Part shown: positions 2,374 through 48,116 of the stretch, piece after piece
Numbering within the stretch: the first letter of the stretch is position 1
Layout of the letters: every line of letters begins with the position of its first letter
Virus record (IMG/VR): IMGVR_UViG_3300008952_000034
Coordinates: 1-64,000 of that record
DNA length: 64,000 nucleotides
Source: an uncultured virus (IMG/VR IMGVR_UViG_3300008952_000034)
Taxonomy: Duplodnaviria; Heunggongvirae; Uroviricota; Caudoviricetes
Strand: one strand, 5' to 3'
Program-made: the position numbers and the translations under genes
Notes under the pieces: model-generated
Told to the model about the DNA's origin: nothing
The model's input: only the letters and a program-made list of their open reading frames with translations
Databases searched by the model: none

Positions 2374-2548
2374 TATTAGTAGTCACCAAATATATCGCTT
2401 TCCGTGTATTGGTGTATGCAGTATAGATGCGGAAAGCGGATACTGTTTAGGATGTAGTCGCACTGAAGAAGAAGTATATAAGTGGGAAGATCCAAATACT
2501 ACTGACGAATGGAAGAAGAAGAACGAAGAAGAATTAAAAAATAGATGA
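2363..2548 (+). CDS. DUF1289-family small Cys protein
   Basis: PCIGVC...GYCLGCSRTEEE signature. Confidence 0.8.
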   Translation: MTFNISSHQIYRFPCIGVCSIDAESGYCLGCSRTEEEVYKWEDPNTTDEWKKKNEEELKNR

Positions 2549-3600
2549 TAAATCAGAGACTATTTGATCATTACAAAATAGACACAAAGAAAAATTTACA
2601 AATTAAAAATATATGTCCAAGGCCATATGATACTATCTTAATAGATAAAAATGGATCTTGTTATGCTTGTGAATGCACATCGTGGTTACCACAAAGCATA
2701 GGAAACTTACAATTACAAAACTTATCTGAAATTACTGGGTCAGAAATACACAACCTTTTGCGAGAATCTGTAAGTGATGAAACATATCGTTACTGCAATG
2801 AGCACCAATGTTCTTATATAAAATCTGGAGCAGTATTAAATGATAATACAAATAAACTTAGACATCTACGTTTAGCTATTGACGATTCTTGTAATTTAAG
2901 ATGTCCTAGTTGCAGAAAAGGATTAATATTTCATAAAAACGGATCAGCATTTAGATTAGGCATTAAACTTGCTAATAAAATTAATAATTTTTTACAACAA
3001 GGAATAAATTATGATTTATTCCCCACACCCATTACAGTACATATAGGTTCGGATGGCGATCCTTTTGCTTCACACGTGTACAGACATTTCATGGAACAAA
3101 CACCAAAAAGCAAAATGATTCGTTATTCTATTTTGACAAACGCACTTATGTTTGAGGACTTTCATACAAAAGTACCACACATTATAAACAGTTTAGACGA
3201 ATTAGGAGTTAGTATTGATGGTGCTAGTAAAGAAACGTATGAGAAACTAAGACTAGGTGGCAAGTGGGACAACATTCATCGCAATTTAAAATGTATAGCT
3301 AACTTAAAACAAAAACATAATTTTAGATTTATATTACACTTTGTTGTACAAAAAGACAACTATCACGAAATGGAAAAAATTATTGACCTAGGCGAACAAT
3401 ACGGTGCTGACAGAGTTTGGCTTAACAAGATTGAAGACTGGGGTACCATAGACGATTTTAAAACACAAAACATATTTGAAACAACAGATTACAAACGTCA
3501 ACTAGACAATGTTGTGCAACGTATACAAAAACGCAATGATAGATTTATTGAGTGTCCTACATTAATAAGTGAAGCAGTTCGTTATAGAACCAAAAAATAA
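2545..3600 (+). CDS. Radical SAM protein with N-terminal Cys-rich (SPASM/twitch-like) region
   Basis: CNLRCPSC, GDPF, SIDG, extra N-terminal Cys. Confidence 0.9.
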   Translation: MINQRLFDHYKIDTKKNLQIKNICPRPYDTILIDKNGSCYACECTSWLPQSIGNLQLQNLSEITGSEIHNLLRESVSDETYRYCNEHQCSYIKSGAVLNDNTNKLRHLRLAIDDSCNLRCPSCRKGLIFHKNGSAFRLGIKLANKINNFLQQGINYDLFPTPITVHIGSDGDPFASHVYRHFMEQTPKSKMIRYSILTNALMFEDFHTKVPHIINSLDELGVSIDGASKETYEKLRLGGKWDNIHRNLKCIANLKQKHNFRFILHFVVQKDNYHEMEKIIDLGEQYGADRVWLNKIEDWGTIDDFKTQNIFETTDYKRQLDNVVQRIQKRNDRFIECPTLISEAVRYRTKK

Positions 3601-3602
3601 TT

Positions 3603-4184
3603 TTATATTTCGCCTAGTTGACCTTCGTTTATGTTCTCTTTAAAACGTTTTACGTGTGTTTCTCTTGCCCACTGTTCTTCTTCTTTAGTTGGATTTAAAT
3701 AATTTATTGGTTCTTTATAGAAACAAAAACTAAATTGTAATCTAGGTATTTTTGGATTTTTACCCATGTCTATTCCGTGTAAAATATCAGAACGTAATAC
3801 AATTGGTGTAATACACTCAACTCTGTCTATTTCGTTCCTATCTTCATCATACCAGGTATTATAGGTATTTTTAGTGTTTAATACTGGAAAATTTATTTTT
3901 GCTATTACCGGGGGTCTGTCTATATGAGTTTCTACTTGGTGAGTGGAATTGGTCCCCCAGTAAGTATAAGACATATCTCTAACTTTTAAATGCATACTAT
4001 CAAACCATTTTCGCAATTCTAAATTTTCGTTTGATGAATAAAAATATTGTTTAACTTGTTCGCGGGTACAGGTGTTCCAAAAGCCTTTGGGTTTATCGTG
4101 GGCGGTAATACCTAAAAAAAATCCGTACAGGCTATCAGCAATTTTTTGTTGCTTTTCGCAATCCAAAATAAAATATGACTTCAT
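3603..4184 (-). CDS. Hypothetical protein, possibly 2OG-Fe(II)/cupin-like
   Basis: HID...INFP...HG...R pattern. Confidence 0.45.
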   Translation of the reverse strand: MKSYFILDCEKQQKIADSLYGFFLGITAHDKPKGFWNTCTREQVKQYFYSSNENLELRKWFDSMHLKVRDMSYTYWGTNSTHQVETHIDRPPVIAKINFPVLNTKNTYNTWYDEDRNEIDRVECITPIVLRSDILHGIDMGKNPKIPRLQFSFCFYKEPINYLNPTKEEEQWARETHVKRFKENINEGQLGEI

Positions 4185-4190
4185 GTGCAG

Positions 4191-4200
4191 TATTTAAATA
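4191..4200. promoter_or_regulatory. Overlapping bidirectional late-type promoter TATTTAAATA
   Basis: TAAATA on both strands between divergent ATGs at 4184 and 4216. Confidence 0.55.
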
Positions 4201-4215
4201 CTCTTTAACACTCAT

Positions 4216-4725
4216 ATGAAAATTGCGATTACAGGACATAAAAAAGGTATTGGTAAAGCATTTGCAGAACAACTTGCTGAAAAAGGACACGAAATAGTTG
4301 GTATATCTAGAAGTGATGGAGAAAACATTCGTAGAACAACACACACAGCATCGTTAATAGAACCCTGTGATTTGCTTATAAACAATGCTATAAGTTTTTA
4401 TGCACAAACAGAACTTCTATTTGAAGTTTGGCATAGGTGGTCTACAGCAAAAGAAGTTCACTACATCTGGAACATATCAACAAAACTTTGTGAACATACT
4501 GAAGATATTACTATAAAGGGATTAACAATGAGAGAGTCAATGCAATATAGAAACCAAAAGATGGCTCTTGAATTGGCACACCAGCAACTTGAATCACAAC
4601 CTAGTAATATTAAGATGTCACTAATACGTCCAGGAAGTGTTAACACACAAACATTTAGTGAAGCAAACAGTATATCTGCTGAAGAATATGTCAAGGGAGT
4701 ATTAAATGCTTACCCACTGGAATAA
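4216..4725 (+). CDS. Short-chain dehydrogenase/reductase
   Basis: TGHKKGIG, INNA, YRNQK (YxxxK), IRPG. Confidence 0.85.
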   Translation: MKIAITGHKKGIGKAFAEQLAEKGHEIVGISRSDGENIRRTTHTASLIEPCDLLINNAISFYAQTELLFEVWHRWSTAKEVHYIWNISTKLCEHTEDITIKGLTMRESMQYRNQKMALELAHQQLESQPSNIKMSLIRPGSVNTQTFSEANSISAEEYVKGVLNAYPLE

Positions 4726-5233
4726 ACTTATTAATACCGACTGTACTGTTATTGATATTGGGGTTAATACAATCTATCCTATATTTAAAAATGGCTCTAG
4801 TAGTTTAATGGCTGTTGCAGATAAAACTTATGTTAACAAACAAATTGCTAATTGTAACAATATTATTATACTGTTAAGAGATCCGGAAGAGCGTTTTGTT
4901 TCTGGAATCAATGAATACTGTAAACAAAACAATCTAGATGTTAGAGACACATGGGAATTAGTTTACAACGACAAAATAATAAACAGACATTTTGCTCCAC
5001 AATGGTTATGGCTATTTCATTTATATAAATTTTATCGAGGCAAGGTAATATTAAAACCGTTTAAAACTATAAAGGAATATTGCAAAGTTCATACAAACAA
5101 AGAAAAAAAGAAAACAGATGTTGCTTTAATAAAACAATTTGTTGAGGTGGATTATGAACTAATAGAAAACCATTTAAACAAACCTATATTACTTGAAAAA
5201 TTAATTAGAAAGTATAAAAATGTTTTGTCCTAG
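4706..5233 (+). CDS. Sulfotransferase-like protein
   Basis: IFKNGSSS (5'-PSB-like) and LRDPEERFVSG (3'-PB-like). Confidence 0.6.
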   Translation: MLTHWNKLINTDCTVIDIGVNTIYPIFKNGSSSLMAVADKTYVNKQIANCNNIIILLRDPEERFVSGINEYCKQNNLDVRDTWELVYNDKIINRHFAPQWLWLFHLYKFYRGKVILKPFKTIKEYCKVHTNKEKKKTDVALIKQFVEVDYELIENHLNKPILLEKLIRKYKNVLS

Positions 5234-6242
5234 GCTAGAACACTTTATTAGATTAAATCAAGATGGCACTATTGGCAAGTGTGGACATATGGTTAAAGCT
5301 AAAGGATTTAAAACATTTAACGAATTACATAACAGTCAATGGCTTAAAAAAATACAAATGGATATGATTTTTGACAAGTGGCCAGATGAGTGCATGAGGT
5401 GTAAACAAACAGAAGATACAACAGGTGAAAGCATTCGTACTAAAAGTATAACAAGACATAAGATGTTACATCCACTCAAAGAAGATTACTTGGTTGTTGG
5501 TGGTGTGTTAGATAATGTATGCAACAGTGCTTGTCAAACTTGTAATGCTGGACTATCAACCAAAATTGGTAGTTTAGAAAAAAATTATATAAAAACAAAT
5601 AACTTTGCAAAGTTTCTTAAACTTCCACAAAGTAGAATTTTAGAAGTAGATGTCAATGGTGGTGAACCTACTGCTAGTAAAAATTATAAAAAATTATTAG
5701 CTAACTTGCCTCGTAAGACAAAAATAGTTAGAATGAATACCAACGGTTCAAGAATGATTGATGAAATAATAACATTACTCAAAAAGAAAATTATGGTTAT
5801 TGTTACAATAAGTCTTGATGGTGTAGGTGATGTTCACGACTATGTACGTTGGCCAATTAAATGGAAAGATTATACAAAAACTGTAGAAAAATATAAAAAA
5901 TTACAAGAACAATACAAACTACTTAAATTAGATTTTTGGACTACTGTTAGTTGCTTAAACGTAGGAGACTTACCTAACATTATAGAATATGCAAAAAATA
6001 AAAACATACCACACGCATGGGCATTTTTGAACACGCCTGATGCTTTAAATGTAAAATATAAAAACAATTTAACAACCAATGCCAAACATATAGCACCAGA
6101 TAAAATTGCTATTGCTGAAAATAATTCTAACCAACTTAGACTTTTTATTAAAAAACAAGACTATGTTAGAAAAATTAATATTAGAGATTATTTGAGTTTT
6201 AATCTAAACTTATTTAGGAATAATTTAGCAAATCTTTTATGA
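5220..6242 (+). CDS. Radical SAM protein with N-terminal twitch-like region
   Basis: CNSACQTC, GGEP, TNG, SLDG. Confidence 0.9.
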   Translation: MFCPRLEHFIRLNQDGTIGKCGHMVKAKGFKTFNELHNSQWLKKIQMDMIFDKWPDECMRCKQTEDTTGESIRTKSITRHKMLHPLKEDYLVVGGVLDNVCNSACQTCNAGLSTKIGSLEKNYIKTNNFAKFLKLPQSRILEVDVNGGEPTASKNYKKLLANLPRKTKIVRMNTNGSRMIDEIITLLKKKIMVIVTISLDGVGDVHDYVRWPIKWKDYTKTVEKYKKLQEQYKLLKLDFWTTVSCLNVGDLPNIIEYAKNKNIPHAWAFLNTPDALNVKYKNNLTTNAKHIAPDKIAIAENNSNQLRLFIKKQDYVRKINIRDYLSFNLNLFRNNLANLL

Positions 6243-13775: not shown

Positions 13776-14786
13776 ATGTCGTTGATATATTCACCAATTC
13801 CGGTTTGTCTGGCATTTGAACCAATCAATTTATGTAATGCTCAATGTTTTTGTTGTCCATATACTGAATTTGCTACGGATAAAACGTTTATAAAACAAAA
13901 AATGTCAGTAGAACAAATAACACAATTAATGGATGATTGGGGTAATTTACTAAGAAAACATAATATAAAACCGTGGTCGGTTTCTGTTTTGCCGTGGCGA
14001 TATTCAGATCCTTTACTCAACCCCCATTTAGATACTGTATTACAATTAGCAGACAAGCATAAAACAAGAGTAAGTCTTACAACAAATGCTATATCGTTTG
14101 GTAAACGACAATGTGACCTTTTACAAAAATATAGTCATACATTAACAAAAATATTCATTTCAGTAATAGGATTTACTGAAAAAGAAGTATGGGAACAAAT
14201 GAAAGTTCACAGAAAAAAAGTGTTTCAAAGTTTAGAATTTGTAAGAGATAACTACCCTAATCTATCTAAGTTGATGAAAATTGCTATTAAAAATAGAAGC
14301 CAGGATCTTCCTCCAGGAGATACAGTAGAGGAATATGCAAAAAGAACATTAGGAAAAGCTACAGGAAAAGGTAATTGGATGAGTAATAGATTAGGAAAAG
14401 GAGATGCCGTTTGGGCGAAGCCTGTTAAATGGAATCCGGGTCCTAACAGTTTTGTTAATGGGTGTGGCCTAACTCCCGGAAAAATATTAAATCGTTTAGA
14501 AATCATGGTTAATGGTCGAGCGGCCCTTTGTTGTGATATGTCTTATGATCGTAATCATCCTATTGAGCAAACAAATTACGGTAATGTGTTCGATATTGGT
14601 ATTGAGGGTGTTTGGGCTAACTTAACAAAACAACACCAACTAATATACGATCAAAAGTATTCTGAAAAGAAACTAGGATTAATATGCAATAACTGTGATA
14701 GGTCTGGAATAAGCAGTATGGGTTGGAAACTTAAAGACACTATACAACGCCAACAAAAGTATAAAAGAAAGTTTTTTGATAGATAG
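13776..14786 (+). CDS. Radical SAM protein with C-terminal SPASM/twitch domain
   Basis: CNAQCFCC, TTNA, C-terminal C...CCD...GNV...CNNC. Confidence 0.88.
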   Translation: MSLIYSPIPVCLAFEPINLCNAQCFCCPYTEFATDKTFIKQKMSVEQITQLMDDWGNLLRKHNIKPWSVSVLPWRYSDPLLNPHLDTVLQLADKHKTRVSLTTNAISFGKRQCDLLQKYSHTLTKIFISVIGFTEKEVWEQMKVHRKKVFQSLEFVRDNYPNLSKLMKIAIKNRSQDLPPGDTVEEYAKRTLGKATGKGNWMSNRLGKGDAVWAKPVKWNPGPNSFVNGCGLTPGKILNRLEIMVNGRAALCCDMSYDRNHPIEQTNYGNVFDIGIEGVWANLTKQHQLIYDQKYSEKKLGLICNNCDRSGISSMGWKLKDTIQRQQKYKRKFFDR

Positions 14787-18077: not shown

Positions 18078-18683
18078 TTATTGCTCCTGTTTGTTGTCGT
18101 CTTCTCTACTAGTTACTATTTTATCTGCAAGTCCATAAGCTACTGCCTCGTCTGGTGTCATGAATTTATCTCTTTCCATATCATCTTTAAGTTTATCTAA
18201 AGGTTGCCCTGTGTGCTTTTCATAAATTTTTGTAAGTTCGTCCTTCCATCTTAACAATTCATTAGCTTGAATTTGTACATCTGTTGCTTGTCCTCTTGCT
18301 CCACCTAATGGTTGGTGTATCATATGTCTACCGTGTGGTAACATAAATCTTTTTCCCTTTGTTCCTGCTGTGGCAAGTAATGATCCCATTGAACAGGCTT
18401 GTCCAACAACAATAGTTTGTATGTCAGAGCGGACGTACTGCATGGTATCATATATCGCCATACCAGCAGTAACTAATCCGCCTGGGGAGTTTATGTATAA
18501 TGTAATATCTTTTTTGCTGTCTTGTGATTCTAAAAATAACAATTGGGCACACAATACTGATGATGTGCGTTCATCAATTGGGCCTTCCAACATTATAATT
18601 CTGTCTTTAAGTAAGCGAGAGAATATGTCGTAACTACGTTCTCCTTTACTTGTTTGTTCTATTACTATCGGTGTTAGTGGCAT
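18078..18683 (-). CDS. clpP: ATP-dependent Clp protease proteolytic subunit
   Basis: [33 protein letters not shown]. Confidence 0.97.
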
Positions 18684-19665: not shown

Positions 19666-20505
19666 TTAATTTTTCAACGTCTTCCAATATGGATGTGTTT
19701 GTTTTGTGGTAAGATCTCGTTTTTTAGATGTCATAGCCACTTTACGATCATAACCTTTTAAATGATCCATGTATTGGCCAAGCTCACTATTAATAAATGG
19801 ATGCCTTGCTTTTCTATCTCCGGACCATCGGCCATCGTTTAAGTCCTCATTTTTTATTTTTCCGGCCTGTTCCATTTCAAGTCGCACTGCATCAAATGTA
19901 AACGAATCTGTATAACCTGCTATTGGAAAATGATTTAGGAATCCTTTTTGTATATTAAAGAACAAATCTTCAGCATAATATTGTTCCCACCTTTCAAAAA
20001 ATTCTGTTGCGTACTTATGAGCGGTGTTGAAAGCATAGTATCCTGTTTCTGAAAAGCCTTTCTTGGGTCTTCCTAGATATGATGTGAACGCAGTGTTTGG
20101 TAATATATGTTCTAGCCAAGACATAGGAATCTTTTCAAATGTAATAATGTCTGCATCTAAGTACCAAAGCATATCGGGTTTTGTTTTATAGTATGCATCT
20201 ATACAGGCAAATACTTTGTAGCTGAATCTAATAGCATCATATTCAAACTTATATTGTTGTGGTTGCCATTTTGTAAGTCTCGGATTATCTTTGTTTCTTT
20301 CAATAAACTCTTTTAATACAAGTTGCTCTTTACATAAATCATAATACTCTGTTCGAGGCAACTCAAGTTGTTGTGACATGTCATCTGGATACAAAAGTAT
20401 TTTTGCATGGCCCGGCCAATTCTTTACTGTACTTTGAATTCCTGCCTGTACAGGTTTAGGCCAATATTTTGGCCCCCATGTTGTTACAATTGTTAATGAT
20501 TTCAT
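19666..20505 (-). CDS. Putative glycosyltransferase, paralog 2 of 3
   Basis: LDAD, SETGY, DHLKG. Confidence 0.65.
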   Translation of the reverse strand: MKSLTIVTTWGPKYWPKPVQAGIQSTVKNWPGHAKILLYPDDMSQQLELPRTEYYDLCKEQLVLKEFIERNKDNPRLTKWQPQQYKFEYDAIRFSYKVFACIDAYYKTKPDMLWYLDADIITFEKIPMSWLEHILPNTAFTSYLGRPKKGFSETGYYAFNTAHKYATEFFERWEQYYAEDLFFNIQKGFLNHFPIAGYTDSFTFDAVRLEMEQAGKIKNEDLNDGRWSGDRKARHPFINSELGQYMDHLKGYDRKVAMTSKKRDLTTKQTHPYWKTLKN

Positions 20506-21698
20506 TTTACAAAGCTAGATATCACTTCGTACAATTTATCGATTCCTTCTTTGATATTTTCACTACCGTTTCCTACAAAGAATCCGTTGTTGTGTATATC
20601 ATCTGCGGCTGTCATTTGTTTTGAAGCTAAAAGAATTTTATTTGGGTTTACCCATTGTCCTGAAACAATAAAGTCTAAGTCTCTCATAACAGGTTGTTTT
20701 AAAAAGTTTCTTGATGCTAACGGTCTATTTTGTATTCCGGCTTTGCTCAATGCGTTAATAACTTCTGCTCTACGACCTTTTAACTCTCCATCTAGAACCA
20801 TTCCAAACGTAAACCAACTGCTTTCACCTATTTCTTTTTGTATTCTGCACCACGGCTTATCTGCAAACAGTGAGAAGAAATGTTCTTTGTTTGCTAAACG
20901 TGTTTCCATAATGTTATTCCATTTAGTTAATTGTGCTGAACCAATTGCTCCACTCATCTCTAGTGGTCTAATGTTATAGCCCGGAGTTGCAAAAATAAAG
21001 TTATCGTTAAATGCGTTTCCTGTTTTTTGATACAATGTCGAGTTATCTGGTAAATCTCTAACCCAACCATGTGCTCTCATACTTCGCATATAGTCTGCAT
21101 CATCTTTATCTGTGCATAAAACCATACCGCCTTCCATTGTTTGTATATGATGTGAAAAGAAAAATGAGAACGATCCTGCTAACCCTATCGCTCCTGTATA
21201 CAAACCATTATACTTTGCACCCATACTTTCGCAATTGTCTTCTATTAATAATAAATTGTGTTTGGTGCATATGTCTATTATCTTGCTATACTCGCAACTG
21301 TTACCTAGCAAGTTAACTGGCATGATAGCACAGGTATCAGGAGTAATTGCATCTTCAATTTTGTTTACATCAATATTCCAAGTGTTAGGATCTACATCAA
21401 CAAAGTTAATCTTAAATCCGTTTTGTACTATAGGAAAATATGTTGTTGCCCAACCAACCACCGGAACTATAATATTTCCTGTTAATTTATACTTCCACTT
21501 TAATAAACTTAACATTAATAAGTTTGCTGACGAACCGGAGTTAACCATTACAGCATGTTGACTACCAAACAGTTGTGCGAATTCTTGTTCGAACTGCTTA
21601 ACGTGTTTGCCCATTGTGTACATGTCTGTATCAATGACTTTTTGTATTGCTTCTAACTCTTCTTTCCCCCAAGTAGAATATGCTAATGGATATATCAT
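20502..21698 (-). CDS. colD: DegT/DnrJ-family PLP enzyme, ColD-type GDP-4-keto-6-deoxymannose 3-dehydratase
   Basis: NSGSSANL, EDNCESMG, FFSHHIQTMEGG (His at the usual Lys position), RAHGW. Confidence 0.75.
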   Translation of the reverse strand: MIYPLAYSTWGKEELEAIQKVIDTDMYTMGKHVKQFEQEFAQLFGSQHAVMVNSGSSANLLMLSLLKWKYKLTGNIIVPVVGWATTYFPIVQNGFKINFVDVDPNTWNIDVNKIEDAITPDTCAIMPVNLLGNSCEYSKIIDICTKHNLLLIEDNCESMGAKYNGLYTGAIGLAGSFSFFFSHHIQTMEGGMVLCTDKDDADYMRSMRAHGWVRDLPDNSTLYQKTGNAFNDNFIFATPGYNIRPLEMSGAIGSAQLTKWNNIMETRLANKEHFFSLFADKPWCRIQKEIGESSWFTFGMVLDGELKGRRAEVINALSKAGIQNRPLASRNFLKQPVMRDLDFIVSGQWVNPNKILLASKQMTAADDIHNNGFFVGNGSENIKEGIDKLYEVISSFVK

Positions 21699-22492
21699 TT
21701 GTCCTCCTTTGGAACCAGTACTGATGGGAATACACTAGGCTCTGCTAACTCTGGTTTATTGTGTAATTTCTTTTGGCCTTTCATATGTATTAAAAACTCT
21801 GACAGTGGAGATGTTGGTACTGGGTCTTTAGTATTCATTCCTTTATGATACTTCATTAAGTCCATTTGTTTACAATACTTAAATGAATCTCTTCCTATTG
21901 CCATTGTATATTGATCTGCTTGTTGGTTGTCATACCCCCATAACTCTCCACTAATATAAATCTCTTCTAATCTATTTGCCCATTTCTTTGCTTCTGGGTG
22001 CTTTGGGTTATGCATATAAAATCCGGTTTCATCTCTCATTTTTGGCCTGTCAAAAAATGTACACAATGAATCGGCTGGACAAATTTCTCTAAGATAATCT
22101 AAATTAGGTTTGGCTGTATACAATGTATCTGCATCTGAATATAATATAACATCTGCGTTAGAATTTTTTACCCTGTGTGTTTGTGCAAAAACTTTATGTG
22201 AAAACTTAACACCGTTGTTTTTCCATACGTACTTTTGTCTATCCTCTCGCCAACCATGTTTTACAGGATCGTCTTTCCATTTGTCTACAAATTCTTTTAG
22301 TTGAGGTTGTGCTTTATACAGTTCATGGTAAACAATATTATCTTGGAATATCTCTGGTTCTTGCTCTTGCCAATATGCATGAAGTATACAGTCTTTTGGC
22401 CAATACTTAACAAACGACTCTATCATGTTCTTGGCACATAGATCATAATATCCTTTATTATAAGTTGTGCAAATTTCTACAGTTCTTGACAT
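21695..22492 (-). CDS. Putative glycosyltransferase, paralog 3 of 3 (start MSRTVEIC)
   Basis: SDAD, ETGF, HMKG; N-terminus aligns with paralogs from ATG 22492. Confidence 0.65.
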   Translation of the reverse strand: MSRTVEICTTYNKGYYDLCAKNMIESFVKYWPKDCILHAYWQEQEPEIFQDNIVYHELYKAQPQLKEFVDKWKDDPVKHGWREDRQKYVWKNNGVKFSHKVFAQTHRVKNSNADVILYSDADTLYTAKPNLDYLREICPADSLCTFFDRPKMRDETGFYMHNPKHPEAKKWANRLEEIYISGELWGYDNQQADQYTMAIGRDSFKYCKQMDLMKYHKGMNTKDPVPTSPLSEFLIHMKGQKKLHNKPELAEPSVFPSVLVPKEDK

Positions 22493-22516
22493 ATTGTAAT
22501 TTAGCAGGTTTGGTGT

Positions 22517-22684
22517 TGGCTGTCTACCTTTTACACCCGGGCACCTCTGTAGAAGATACCCAGGGGGGTCTACAGCCACTTAATTTATGCTTACCTATTC
22601 TTGCACACAGGAGTTGCCCTTTACGGCCATGTTGCTTCGGACTCTCGCCTTCACAACAGGTGTCTATACTTCCACCATAAGCAC
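22517..22684 (-). ncRNA. Structured two-domain RNA in the leader of the sugar-modification operon
   Basis: GC-rich; stems GUGCUUAU/GUAAGCAU, UGUUG/CAACA, GGC-GAGA-GUC, UGGCUGU/ACAGCCA and a 12-bp G-U-rich hairpin. Confidence 0.65.
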
Positions 22685-22691
22685 ACTAGTA

Positions 22692-22720
22692 ATTATATGA
22701 TCTTATAATGATTTAGTCAA
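22692..22720 (-). promoter_or_regulatory. sigma70-type promoter TTGACT-N17-TATAAT
   Basis: Near-consensus, directly upstream of the RNA. Confidence 0.8.
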
Positions 22721-22744
22721 GCAAAACCAAATAACTATACATAT

Positions 22745-23017
22745 ATGACGTCACAAGTTCCTAAACGCACACGACAAATACAAAGGCATTACCTCGATAA
22801 AAAACAAGCAGAGAAGCATTGTATAGATATAGAACAATACTTTGAGCAGGAACTCCGAAGTTATATGAAATATGCTGTTAATGTAATACTACAAGGATCT
22901 ATACTAACTCATAGACAACGTGTAGATTTTATAAGAGGATGGATGCGTTCTTGGTTATCTGATGATAAGTTACACAAACGATTGCACAAACATAAGAATT
23001 CGTCTAGGCCTACTTAA
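22745..23017 (+). CDS. Hypothetical protein
   Basis: ORF track. Confidence 0.55.
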   Translation: MTSQVPKRTRQIQRHYLDKKQAEKHCIDIEQYFEQELRSYMKYAVNVILQGSILTHRQRVDFIRGWMRSWLSDDKLHKRLHKHKNSSRPT

Positions 23018-24950: not shown

Positions 24951-25154
24951 TAACCCAACATATGTATAACACATTATATTCATTATAGTGTGTTATATGT
25001 CATTAGTGCCGGAGGCCGATGTGGTAATCGTATTGCTCGGGCGGGGTAAACTCAGATTGGCTATGTGGTTATTGCATGATCGACTTACTTCATAAGTCAG
25101 GCCTTCTCTTCGTTCATGCCATATACACATAGAACTCTATACTATATAGGGGAT

Positions 25155-25417
25155 TACCAATCCTTACCATACCAACCCAGCGTCCTACCAATCTCTACCA
25201 GCGTAGAAGGGTACCCATCGACCTTACCAAATACACCAAGTTAGAACACACCGGAAGCAGACATCAATAGGTCTCCATATTACCAACGCTTACCATTCCT
25301 TACCATCTCCGATAGCGTACCGACGGTATGGCATATTGTTCCAGATCGTACTCCGTCTCAACCATTCGCACGGTGGTCATATGGGCAGGATAGGTTAAGC
25401 GAAACAAAGTATTACCA
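25155..25417 (+). repeat. Ten TACCA pentamers, many at 10-bp phase
   Basis: 25155, 25165, 25170, 25186, 25196, 25225, 25281, 25291, 25301, 25413. Confidence 0.8.
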
Positions 25418-25684: not shown

Positions 25685-25982
25685 AAATCCTCAAGATAAT
25701 TGTATATTGTGATAGTACAATTCAAACTCTAGAGCTACCGCTGGGCTCAAAGGGTTGCGAAGCGAACTAGCGAAGCCGAGCTAGGTCTTTTACAATAGGA
25801 ATTATTATGTAGGATAGGCTTAGGAGAGCCTGGTCAAATCTGTCTTACGCGAAGGCCTGCGGCCGAGTTAGATCTATCGCCGAAAAAAATCGCCGGCGCT
25901 TATCGCTTCGCTCTGGGGTCACTCTTCCACCTACCGTTCAGGGGGAGGTGTCTGACAATATTGATTATGTCTAAATAATGTT

Positions 25983-26055
25983 GGCGGTAGAGCTCGGGTA
26001 GATGAGCATCAGAATCATAAGCTGAATGCCGTGGGTGCAATTCCTGCTACCGCTA
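25983..26055 (+). tRNA. Atypical tRNA-like gene, anticodon CAT (Met/Ile2-type), no encoded CCA
   Basis: GGCGGTA/TACCGCT, GCTC/GAGC, TCAG/CTGA around ATCATAA, GTGGG/CCTGC with TGCAATT loop; TAAATA at 25972. Confidence 0.7.
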
Positions 26056-45941: not shown

Positions 45942-47036
45942 ATGTTAATAGAACAATCAACATATTGTTCTTTATCCACATCTGCTTGGGACGACAGAAA
46001 CAAAAAGATGTGTTGTTGGGCAAAATTACCAGAATATAAAAATTATCAAGAAATGCACAATAACAATACTGTCAAACAGTTAGTCGATGATTTACAAAAC
46101 GGAATAAGAAACCCAATATGTAAAACTTGTTGGGCAATGGAAGACGATGGCATCTTTAGTATGAGACAACAATCGTTACAAAACGAAGGATTACCAAAAA
46201 CAAACGATTTTTTACAACAAGAACTACAAGATAAGAAATTAAAATATCTAATGTTAAATTCTGGAATACAGTGCAACTTCGCTTGTAGGACTTGCGGACC
46301 ATGGAGTAGTACAGGGCATTACAATGAATGGGCAGAGAAAAACGGGAGAGCCTGGAAAACAGACAACGTTGACTTGGAAGGATTATTAAAGCAAGACTTA
46401 TCTAATGTAAAAAATATTGAAGTACTTGGTGGAGAACCTTTTACAAATTTAGATCATTTAAAGGTTATTGACAAGTTAAAGAATTCTCAACCATATTGGT
46501 TAACTTATACAACAAATGGGTCTGTGAGAATAAGAAAAGAAATATTAGATAAATTTACAAATTTCAAAGCAGTCAACATCTGTTTATCAATTGATGCTAT
46601 AGGTAAACCTTTTGAATATATTAGAACTTTAGGCAAATGGGATCAAATTGTGAAAAATGTAGCAAATCTACAAGAGCAAATGAAAACATACAAACACCTA
46701 AGTATTAACGCACATATAACTATTAGTGCTTTAAATGTATTGTATATAAACGAGTCAATCGATTGGCTTGATTCTAAAAATATTCCATTTGACTTTACAT
46801 ATTGTTATAACCCAAACGAATATTCAATGAATCTTTTTAATGAAAAACAAAAACGACATATCATTAACTACCTTAAAGATAAAAAGGAAACTGCACCAAT
46901 AATCAAACACATAGAAAACTCGAAGTTTGATGAAGAGTTGTTCGAAAAATTTAAATATGCGGTTTCTTTTACAGAAAAATTTAGAAAACTTTCATTAAAA
47001 GATTATCTACCTAAACTTCACGAACTAGTAATATAA
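45942..47036 (+). CDS. Radical SAM protein with N-terminal twitch-like region
   Basis: CNFACRTC, GGEPF, TTNG, SIDA. Confidence 0.9.
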   Translation: MLIEQSTYCSLSTSAWDDRNKKMCCWAKLPEYKNYQEMHNNNTVKQLVDDLQNGIRNPICKTCWAMEDDGIFSMRQQSLQNEGLPKTNDFLQQELQDKKLKYLMLNSGIQCNFACRTCGPWSSTGHYNEWAEKNGRAWKTDNVDLEGLLKQDLSNVKNIEVLGGEPFTNLDHLKVIDKLKNSQPYWLTYTTNGSVRIRKEILDKFTNFKAVNICLSIDAIGKPFEYIRTLGKWDQIVKNVANLQEQMKTYKHLSINAHITISALNVLYINESIDWLDSKNIPFDFTYCYNPNEYSMNLFNEKQKRHIINYLKDKKETAPIIKHIENSKFDEELFEKFKYAVSFTEKFRKLSLKDYLPKLHELVI

Positions 47037-48116
47037 TTTAAAATTAGGAATATAATCATCTATGTTTATATTTCTTCTAGTATTAATTGGTTCAAGATAA
47101 TTTATTGTTTTAGAATAATCATAATTTTCTTGTGTGTATAGTGTACTTGTAAGATATTCAAATCCTGAACCTTGTATTTGTTTTTCAAATTCTTTTTTTA
47201 AATCCAATGGTGCATTTAAAATACAAAGTTCTGCAGGTGTATGAACGTGTTGAATATACTGACCAACATATCTTTCCCTTTGCTCAAAGTATTGATACAA
47301 GTCATTAAACCATTCAATAAAGTCTTTAATATTAAACATTGATAGTATTTGAATTGCTGTATCTATTTTTACTGTAAGGGTAGACAGCTCTGTTAGTGTT
47401 TTAATATTTTCTGTTACCTTTTCAAAGTTACTTGGATATCTTATATAATCATTTGCTTGTCCATAAGCATCAACACTTACTGAAATGTTCACATTTTTAA
47501 AATAAGGTAGATATGAATAAAACTTTTCTTGGACATTTGTTAAATTTGTTACAACGTTTAGATGTATGTTCTTTAGAATATTGTTATCTTTTAAAAACTG
47601 AAAATAAGTTATATATTGTTGAATTATTGAAGGCTCTCCTCCTTGTAAAGTTAAGTGTTTGAGATCGTAACTTAACTCACATATTTCATCTAACTCTTTA
47701 TCTGCAATAGAAGTAACACTATTATTATCAGTAAATCGTCCTAGCTCTTTTGCCCACATTGAACTTCTTGATGGATCACACATGACACATTTCAAATTAC
47801 AAAAATTAGATAGATCTAAATCAAGATGTTGTGGTAAATTGTTGTGTTCTAGATCTTTAAATTGTCCATTGTAAAGTTGTCTAAAACTTTGTATACCTTT
47901 ATCTTCCATTTCATAACAAGGAGTACAATCTTTAATTTTAATATTATTAGACAAATTTTGTCTAGCCTTTAATAATTTAGAATGCCATACAGTTTTTGGA
48001 GAGTCGTTATATCTTTTAAAAGAAGCACAGCACAAAGCATGACCTCTTTGTGTGTGTGAAAATTGTGCCCCTATTATACCTTGTTTGCAATACATAACAG
48101 TATTTAACGGCCACAA
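47025..48116 (-). CDS. Radical SAM protein with N-terminal twitch-like region (likely start MYCK)
   Basis: CNLKCVMC, GGEP, YIRYPS. Confidence 0.9.
   Translation of the reverse strand: MWPLNTVMYCKQGIIGAQFSHTQRGHALCCASFKRYNDSPKTVWHSKLLKARQNLSNNIKIKDCTPCYEMEDKGIQSFRQLYNGQFKDLEHNNLPQHLDLDLSNFCNLKCVMCDPSRSSMWAKELGRFTDNNSVTSIADKELDEICELSYDLKHLTLQGGEPSIIQQYITYFQFLKDNNILKNIHLNVVTNLTNVQEKFYSYLPYFKNVNISVSVDAYGQANDYIRYPSNFEKVTENIKTLTELSTLTVKIDTAIQILSMFNIKDFIEWFNDLYQYFEQRERYVGQYIQHVHTPAELCILNAPLDLKKEFEKQIQGSGFEYLTSTLYTQENYDYSKTINYLEPINTRRNINIDDYIPNFKLYY

Follow-up and report, generated by a model that had tools for sequence, protein, structure and literature searches.

What is made from the GC-rich stretch that lies on the minus strand of a marine phage genome between a nearly perfect promoter and a set of sugar-modification genes? 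The stretch belongs to what we call the window, i.e. the 64,000 nucleotides (nt) at positions 1 to 64,000 of the uncultured-virus record IMGVR_UViG_3300008952_000034 (IMG/VR; Caudoviricetes), and it had been singled out in an earlier reading of these letters (hereafter the sequence-only reading) as a two-domain structured RNA that might be either a riboswitch-like regulator of the genes behind it or an independent non-coding RNA (ncRNA). We find that it specifies a conserved, folded and promoter-driven RNA of ~160-170 nt, carried by a handful of uncultured marine jumbo phages and absent from Rfam 15. The RNA is conserved between phages, its structure covaries, it stays linked to its promoter and it is independent of the gene that happens to follow. 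The reading that we prefer, tentatively and at somewhat less than an even chance, is that of a self-contained gene for a stable RNA, built on the plan of a phage transfer RNA (tRNA) gene and transcribed together with the sequence behind it; the RNA itself would be the product.

The window is contained in a 72.6-kb viral record with a CheckV completeness of 21%. Its DnaB-type helicase shares 51% identity with the counterparts of Pseudomonas jumbo phage PA5oct and Agrobacterium phage Atu_ph07, and its ClpP shares 60% identity with Atu_ph07 ClpP; therefore, the source is a fragment of an uncultured marine jumbo phage. The promoter of the RNA, TTGACT-N17-TATAAT (22720-22692, minus strand), matches the σ70 consensus at 11 of 12 positions, and its spacing would place the transcription start at ~22685-22687, i.e. 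at the first nucleotides of helix P1 (see below). Over the ~190 nt after the promoter the GC content is 0.47-0.50, as opposed to a window mean of 0.34. Folded as the minus-strand RNA, the stretch reaches -64.4 kcal/mol (z = -2.46; 2 of 200 shuffles equally good), whereas the plus strand of the same stretch reaches -48.3 kcal/mol (z = +0.46; 132 of 200). No intrinsic terminator-like site was found after the RNA between 22690 and 22490. Hence the promoter with its GC-rich leader and the G-U pairs that work on the transcribed strand only, both remarked upon in the sequence-only reading, are borne out, and the selection at RNA level that it proposed takes the form of a conserved structured RNA with its own promoter and with compensatory changes. 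The elements of this unit are, in the order of transcription (changed pairs are those altered on both sides among the 13 aligned sequences introduced below):

22715..22720, minus strand: -35 hexamer TTGACT, 17-nt spacer before TATAAT
22692..22697, minus strand: -10 hexamer TATAAT, after TTGACT-N17
22678..22685, minus strand: 5' strand of P1, UGUGCUUA, in acceptor-stem position; partner 22586-22593; 7/8 pairs changed
22659..22677, minus strand: U linker, then P2 hairpin GGUG-GAAGUAUAGA-CACC, in D-arm position; 92.3% paired, loop near-invariant
22630..22658, minus strand: P3 (UGUUGU/GCAACA) with GAA/GAA internal loop and hairpin GGC-GAGA-G(U)CC; 4/6 pairs of P3 changed
22616..22627, minus strand: P4, small hairpin in variable-arm position; 12 to 17 nt across homologs; 2/3 pairs changed
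22594..22611, minus strand: P5 hairpin CCUGU-GUGCAAGA-AUAGG, in T-arm position, adjoining the 3' strand of P1; 4/5 pairs changed
22586..22593, minus strand: 3' strand of P1, UAAGCAUA, pairing with 22678-22685
22576..22585, minus strand: single-stranded linker between the domains, variable, its sequence differing among lineages
22569..22575, minus strand: 5' strand of S1, CUGUAGA, pairing with 22547-22553 (UCUACAG); 98.9% of cells paired
22565-22568, minus strand: loop 1, CCCC, preceding the 5' strand of S2
22558..22564, minus strand: 5' strand of S2, CCUGGGU, pairing with 22536-22542; 100% of cells paired, 3/7 pairs changed
22547..22553, minus strand: 3' strand of S1, UCUACAG, in the apical part of the S2 hairpin
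22536..22542, minus strand: 3' strand of S2, GCCCGGG, pairing with 22558-22564
22529..22535, minus strand: A-rich tail UGUAAAA; an A-rich tail follows the pseudoknot in 13/13 homologs
22498..22528, minus strand: GGUAGACAGCC, 3' partner of an alternative outer helix; overlaps a weak promoter-like TAGACA-N17-TAAATT that ends 5 nt before the ATG

Twelve further distinct homologs could be aligned beside the window, namely eight metagenome loci and the viral contigs L107, L116, L118 and L186. The metagenome loci came from a search with a 21-mer from domain 1, which hit nine marine loci; the ninth, L019, ends after ~69 nt and was excluded from the alignments. The remaining eight share ~88-90% identity with the window across promoter and RNA, and their flanks are unalignable on both sides. 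A covariance model, R1, was built from these eight and the window (nine sequences) and, run on loci around phage clpP genes, it recognized L107 (63 bits), L118 (37.7 bits) and L116 (17.4 bits), while a sequence pattern for domain 2 had eight matches in viral contigs, one of them a new member, L186. One IMG/VR contig is identical to the window, and it was the only viral contig matched by exact searches with an 18-mer and a 28-mer; blastn and megablast against the phage collection gave no match. A 15-mer had pointed to 79 loci, which were judged mostly chance and left unscored, as the exact 18-mer matched the identical contig only. A stricter domain-2 pattern had 0 matches in viral contigs and would miss even L107 and the window; a third pattern had 35 matches there, 30 of which were scored with R1 and contained no new member, the other 5 having already been judged chance. 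In 185,579 species genomes, a single genome standing for each prokaryotic species, the domain-2 pattern matched 67 times, never with 7/7 complementarity in S1, and R1 matched none of the 72 pattern-match loci on which it was run (67 from species genomes, 5 viral). The RNA is found in 4 of 50 related viral records, searched over their whole length, and in none of five whole records that bear relatives of the GT-like (glycosyltransferase-like) gene downstream of it, all of these records being fragments. Thus far, the family is small and confined to marine phage contigs, and no description of it was found in the literature on phage stable, tRNA-like, ClpP-linked or decoy RNAs.

Covariation was counted on 13 sequences in a model-based alignment, A10, with P1-P5, the GAGA hairpin, S1 and S2 as the structure. 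This alignment was used because MAFFT alignments of domain 2 misplaced the 3' strand of S2 by one column in four sequences. In A10, 97.5% of the paired cells can pair and 21 of 43 pairs are changed on both sides, distributed over the helices as listed above. None of 500 shuffles matched the real alignment on any of five measures, and controls in which the structure was slid along the alignment had 35-44% of cells paired and 1-7 pairs changed on both sides. The collection of homologs and the search for compensatory change, which the sequence-only reading had recommended, thus came out in favour of an RNA. It had also named codon-type conservation of a 29-codon extension among homologs, in the absence of covariation, as a finding that would refute it. 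This alternative fails because the GTG extension, which is open in the window and in L013, is closed in L017 and L018 (two of the four GT-linked loci), and because the homologs differ by 1-, 3- and 5-nt indels.

In domain 1, five helices form a junction with the helix order and the linker lengths of the tRNA cloverleaf, a resemblance that does not imply membership in the tRNA family. It starts with a 7-bp closing stem plus one extra pair, followed by U, then G, and a 3-4-bp arm with a near-invariant loop; in all lineages a UGG(U/C)G(G/A)AA motif comes after P1. After a linker of 0-1 nt comes a 5-6-bp stem that leads into an internal loop and a GNRA-capped hairpin; the cap is present in every lineage, as GAGA or, in L116, as GCGA. 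The domain ends with a hairpin of variable length and a 5-bp stem adjoining the 3' strand of the closing stem. The variable hairpin, P4, shows an A-U to U-A exchange between L011 and L012 and is missing in L107. In L116 the P5 arm reads AAGGG-UUCAACC-CCCUU, i.e. a 7-nt loop on a 5-bp stem that adjoins a 7-bp closing stem, and ACCA follows. The triplet after the 3' strand of P1 is CCA in L014, L015 and L116, CCU in L118 and L186, and different elsewhere. Most of the pairings that the sequence-only reading had drawn in this domain stand, i.e. the closing helix GUGCUUAU/GUAAGCAU, UGUUG/CAACA, the purine-rich internal loop (GAA/GAA) and the GAGA hairpin. Its possible pairing GGA(A)GU/ACUCC overlaps the covarying P5 and is broken at two of five positions in L107, and this loop pairing was dropped for the clash with P5 and its loss in L107.

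Domain 2, judging from the sequence comparison, is probably an H-type pseudoknot with an A-rich tail rather than a long hairpin. S2 includes a pair seen as G-C, A-U, C-G and U-A. S1, which was not part of the model that made the alignment, has one of seven pairs changed on both sides in the 13 sequences: in L107 it is CUGAAGA/UCUUCAG, a U-A to A-U exchange, and in L116 it is CCAA(A)GAC/GUCUUGG, with seven pairs kept if one A bulges. In both L107 and L116 the 3' strand of S1 lies wholly within the hairpin loop, and therefore the crossing there needs no melting of S2. The loops of the pseudoknot are 4, 3-5 and 4 nt long. The sequence-only reading had drawn a 12-bp stem enclosed by an outer helix, UGGCUGU/ACAGCCA. 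The hairpin is indeed present, but only its lower 6-7 bp covary, and its apical part pairs with the 5' flank. The outer helix did not hold up as a conserved element: it is 85-89% paired, and L015 and L107 lack its partner strand or have another one, whereas in L011 a different 3' sequence re-forms a long outer helix. The pseudoknot and the outer-helix/hairpin conformations may both exist, the pseudoknot being the conserved one.

The surroundings of the RNA vary more than the RNA does. The promoter, TTGAC(N)-17-TATAAT, is kept in 12/12 homologs with upstream sequence (L015 begins inside the promoter and is hence not among them), and the sequence of the spacer is variable. What follows the pseudoknot differs from locus to locus:

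GT-like open reading frame (ORF): 4 loci (the window and 3 homologs), 43-44 nt from the pseudoknot
clpP: 5 loci, 45-54 nt from the pseudoknot
clpP: 1 locus, 195 nt from the pseudoknot
ORF of 251 amino acids (aa), in L107, 11 nt away; unrelated to the GT-like protein of the window
ORF of 220 aa: 1 locus, 20 nt from the pseudoknot
no same-strand ORF: L011, where the RNA is followed, after 12 nt, by the end of a convergent 426-aa gene

On the opposite strand of L011, the rebuilt domain-2 hairpin leads into a run of U (CACUUUUUAUAU), and this could terminate the convergent 426-aa gene. Downstream of the RNA the window contains:

21695..22492, minus strand: first ORF behind the RNA, 265 aa counted from its ATG (22492); GT-like by the label of the sequence-only reading, no Pfam match
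18719-18691, minus strand: promoter-like site before clpP
18078..18683, minus strand: clpP (Pfam CLP_protease, 3e-81), parted from the RNA by the four-gene sugar cassette

The cassette inserted in the window consists of a GT-like gene, a DegT-type aminotransferase gene, a second GT-like gene and an epimerase gene. Pfam confirmed the ColD-like (DegT) and epimerase labels given in the sequence-only reading and left its two glycosyltransferases without a match; these two proteins (21695-22492 and 19666-20505, minus strand) are paralogs with 26% identity. In five relatives of the GT-like gene (75-81% aa identity), the position of the RNA holds other coding sequence; relatives of this gene also carry tandem copies. 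Many clpP-bearing relatives are devoid of the RNA and have clpP directly behind its own promoter, (GG)TTGAC-N17 plus a -10 element that lies 5-8 nt before the ATG. In L116, L118 and L186 this clpP promoter stands immediately behind the RNA and ahead of the start codon, and the window lineage has TAGACA-N17-TAAATT or TACAAT at the corresponding position. The RNA is thus a portable module, independent of the adjacent sugar genes, and normally sits immediately before the clpP promoter. The likely history is one in which gene cassettes were inserted around an RNA module that stood upstream of the clpP promoter. In Atu_ph07 an ATPase gene precedes clpP, leaving no room for the RNA.

Does the RNA belong to a known family? 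With the gathering thresholds of Rfam 15 the whole window gives only four tRNA matches, all elsewhere, and no family matches the RNA at the homolog loci. Thus, the Rfam comparison that the sequence-only reading had put first returned neither manA nor wcaG nor any other match, riboswitch, SRP, RNase P and 6S families included, and within Rfam 15 a known element is excluded. Among known RNAs, class II tRNAs share with domain 1 the helix order and linker lengths of acceptor, D, anticodon-position, variable and T arms, the U after the closing stem, the T-like arm that adjoins the 3' strand of the closing stem and is preceded by the variable arm, and in 5/13 sequences a CCA or CCU after the closing stem. 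Unlike in a tRNA, there is no 7-nt anticodon loop; an internal loop and a GAGA-capped hairpin take that position. In the D-like and T-like loops the lineages differ: L116 has GGG in the former and UUCAACC as the latter, and the window lineage has no GG and an 8-nt T-like loop. Transfer-messenger RNA (tmRNA), including the form that consists of the tRNA-like domain (TLD) only, shares the succession of a tRNA-like domain and a pseudoknot, and protein-quality-control genes are neighbours of the RNA (clpP; dnaK in L107). However, the pair 3:70 is G-C, A-U or U-A in five lineages, with no G3-U70 alanine identity pair by manual reading, and the RNA has a D-like stem, where tmRNA has a stemless D-loop analogue, and lacks a tag reading frame. 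A tmRNA-type domain was rejected: no G3-U70, no tag frame, and no match by ARAGORN -m or by the Rfam tmRNA model.

The nearest system is rnaC of phage T4 (species 1 RNA; NC_000866 70908-71046), in a resemblance of kind only. It is likewise a phage stable RNA with no assigned function, and its predicted fold joins a terminal stem to a T-arm-like hairpin, CCGGG-UUCGAAU-CCCGG. T4 rnaC is made inside a transcription unit without a terminator of its own. It differs in lying at the end of a tRNA cluster, whereas the RNA of the window has a dedicated promoter and a 3' pseudoknot and lies beside clpP, ~15 kb from the main tRNA genes. Run with its filters off on the T4 rnaC/rnaD locus, R1 matched neither rnaC nor rnaD, its best scores (<=5.8 bits) falling elsewhere.

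In the reading that we prefer, a stable RNA would be made as follows. The σ70-type promoter would start transcription on the first base of P1 or no more than a few nucleotides from it and, because no terminator follows, the RNA would form the 5' part of a longer transcript, in the manner of phage tRNA genes. It would then be trimmed out, probably by host RNA-processing enzymes, would be stable, and would act in trans by virtue of its shape, the partner being one that binds tRNA or other RNA; sensing of sugar nucleotides on behalf of the neighbouring genes would not be part of its role.

Several observations weigh against a stable-RNA gene of this kind or against the structure on which it is built. 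The mapping onto the cloverleaf is a manual reading of folds and alignment, not the call of a program. In the 22400-22800 interval Rfam 15 gives two chance matches only even at E <= 10, the tRNA and tmRNA models giving nothing, and ARAGORN with default settings calls none of 10 sequences a tRNA, while in the window it finds three tRNAs elsewhere and no tmRNA. Relaxed ARAGORN settings did yield calls on domain 1 of L116 and L186, which were discarded, since 127/500 and 132/500 shuffles were also called (25-26%). The T-like loop of P5 has 8 nt, GUGCAAGA, in the window lineage and contains a hairpin in L118 and L186. As to the alignment, A10 was fitted to a model that holds all tested helices except S1, and the 13 sequences amount to about five lineages, 9 of the sequences being ~90% identical, which makes for a shallow sample. 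The covariation of S1 depends on L107, and on L116 only in the one-bulge register, and is thus thin, and a third loop of 4 nt across a 7-bp stem is a tight geometry for a pseudoknot. In a search of RNA runs, none contained the RNA; the one RNA-Seq-labelled run that was hit contains a contig with a relative's GT-like gene, which diverges upstream of the ATG and leaves the RNA uncovered. Finally, a same-strand ORF follows the pseudoknot within 11-195 nt and with no intervening terminator at 12/13 loci, an arrangement that would suit a leader.

A generic cis-acting 5' leader, which would stay on the messenger RNA (mRNA) and help any gene that follows, is accordingly the alternative to be taken most seriously, and we regard it as a strong rival, though less probable than the stable-RNA gene. 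It might protect the 5' end from decay, recruit ribosomes at starts that lack a Shine-Dalgarno (SD) sequence by means of the pseudoknot and the A-rich tail, or act by antitermination. Comparable elements exist in other phages: the put RNAs of phage HK022 are structured RNAs just behind a phage promoter that act on their own transcript and make RNA polymerase termination-resistant, and in the T4 gene 32 leader a pseudoknot and then an A/U-rich stretch precede the start codon. Besides the ORFs just mentioned, the position of the module directly behind a strong promoter suits a leader, as do the start regions downstream of the RNA, from which an SD sequence is absent, and L107, where an A/U-rich tail leads directly to an ATG 11 nt away. 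A tRNA-shaped leader would also have a precedent, as, according to an excerpt of PMC9142559, the yjdF riboswitch combines a tRNA-like overall shape with a place in bacterial 5' leaders and regulates translation; the RNA described here has no Rfam yjdF match, however, and its downstream genes vary. An obligatory role in cis, as for put RNAs or the gene 32 leader, is opposed by the context in L011, where a convergent gene follows the RNA, and by the clpP-adjacent loci, which keep an internal clpP promoter between RNA and ATG; clpP needs no RNA leader because its own -10 element lies 5-8 nt before the ATG. Moreover, most relatives with the same downstream genes do without the RNA, given the 4 of 50 related records and the 0 of 5 with GT-like relatives.

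If the RNA of a stable-RNA gene does act in trans, its shape suggests a specific role that we consider improbable: it might be an anticodon-less tRNA mimic with a CCA-like or host-completed 3' end that would engage those host enzymes of tRNA metabolism for which the anticodon is irrelevant (RNase P, the CCA-adding enzyme and a class-II-type aminoacyl-tRNA synthetase) and would be used beside the phage ClpP. The use could then be an aminoacyl transfer that marks proteins for degradation by Clp, or that of a decoy for a tRNA-targeting antiphage nuclease, and the pseudoknot would be a 3' stabiliser or a second binding module. A review of jumbo phages (PMC7824862) describes their ClpP as patchily distributed, in keeping with a protein that is turned against the host, and reports that in some of them a Ro/TROVE protein occurs whose partner resembles a tRNA. 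No TROVE/Ro or CCA-adding-enzyme family was found in the 72.6-kb record, which is uninformative, the record being ~21% of the genome.

Far less can be said for a metabolite riboswitch in which domain 1 would bind, e.g., a nucleotide sugar and control the GT/DegT/epimerase operon, and we hold this to be highly improbable. Sugar-linked RNA motifs, manA and wcaG among them, occur in marine phages, and the RNA shares with these the marine phage setting and, in the window and three homologs, the place upstream of sugar-modification genes; its compact multi-helix junction, highly conserved loops and GNRA tetraloop would also befit an aptamer. Yet neither motif is matched at gathering thresholds or at E <= 10, no Rfam riboswitch model matches at all, and most homologs are not sugar-linked: the downstream genes are unrelated in 9/13 loci, with five different contexts. 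P3/P4 and the loop of P5 vary and the pseudoknot is best kept, the reverse of an aptamer joined to a variable platform, and the spacing to the ATG ranges from 11 to 195 nt. Of the two proposals in the sequence-only reading, the ncRNA therefore fits better, and the riboswitch of a sugar operon is unsupported because relatives of the GT-like gene lack the RNA, the downstream genes are unrelated, and neither a terminator nor a visible sequestration of the start site is present. A decaying class-II tRNA pseudogene with chance structure and no function of its own is the least probable origin, for although its cloverleaf-like layout, the missing anticodon loop, the lack of a tRNA model match and, in L116, a canonical-looking T arm with ACCA could be so explained, the RNA is ~90% identical among contigs with unalignable flanks, all helices are kept by compensatory change, the promoter hexamers and their 17-nt spacing are retained in 12/12 homologs, and the most conserved part is the pseudoknot, which is foreign to tRNA.

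The genomes of giant phages are rich in tRNA genes and also encode a small number of enigmatic stable RNAs, and for T4 rnaC and rnaD we know of no function assigned in decades. A new and delimited family with a clear promoter, an anticodon-less cloverleaf-like domain, a covarying pseudoknot and a recurrent place beside phage clpP offers a concrete object on which to test what phage stable RNAs do during infection, and it is a candidate addition to RNA catalogues. It also illustrates that what looks like the leader of a set of sugar genes can prove to be an RNA module that is portable and sits in a hotspot of cassette swapping.

The clpP loci show further features of their own. In most close relatives (L100-L122) the 40 nt upstream of clpP include a consensus promoter, and its -10 element ends 5-8 nt before the ATG, suggesting leaderless or near-leaderless clpP mRNAs in this phage group. 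L107 encodes a DnaK/Hsp70 of 626 aa (2647-4527) two genes upstream of RNA and clpP, and protein-quality-control genes cluster there. In L115 and in L106 a different GC-rich stretch, also promoter-driven, precedes clpP; L115 shares the UGGUGGCGGAA-type motif and has no domain-2 pseudoknot. L115 also carries a glutamine riboswitch (3102-3149, minus strand; 51.5 bits).

Elsewhere in the window, five radical-SAM-type genes are recognized by PHROG matches (2545-3600, 5220-6242, 13776-14786, 45942-47036 and 47025-48116), and two UDP-glucose-dehydrogenase-like genes are also present. Between 24990 and 26110, ~2.3-3.5 kb from the RNA, more than 1 kb is devoid of any sizeable ORF and contains GC-rich islands of up to 0.575 (25790-26019) and, at 25150-25310 of the plus strand, a (U)UACCA motif repeated about eight times; further structured RNAs may lie there. 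A tRNA with anticodon CAU lies at 25983-26055 (plus strand; Rfam tRNA model, 38.5 bits; no ARAGORN call) and is preceded by a promoter-like site, CTGACA-16-AATAAT. At 26445-26418 (minus strand), a promoter that matches the consensus at 12/12 positions, TTGACA-16-TATAAT with an extended TG, stands upstream of a 72-aa ORF.

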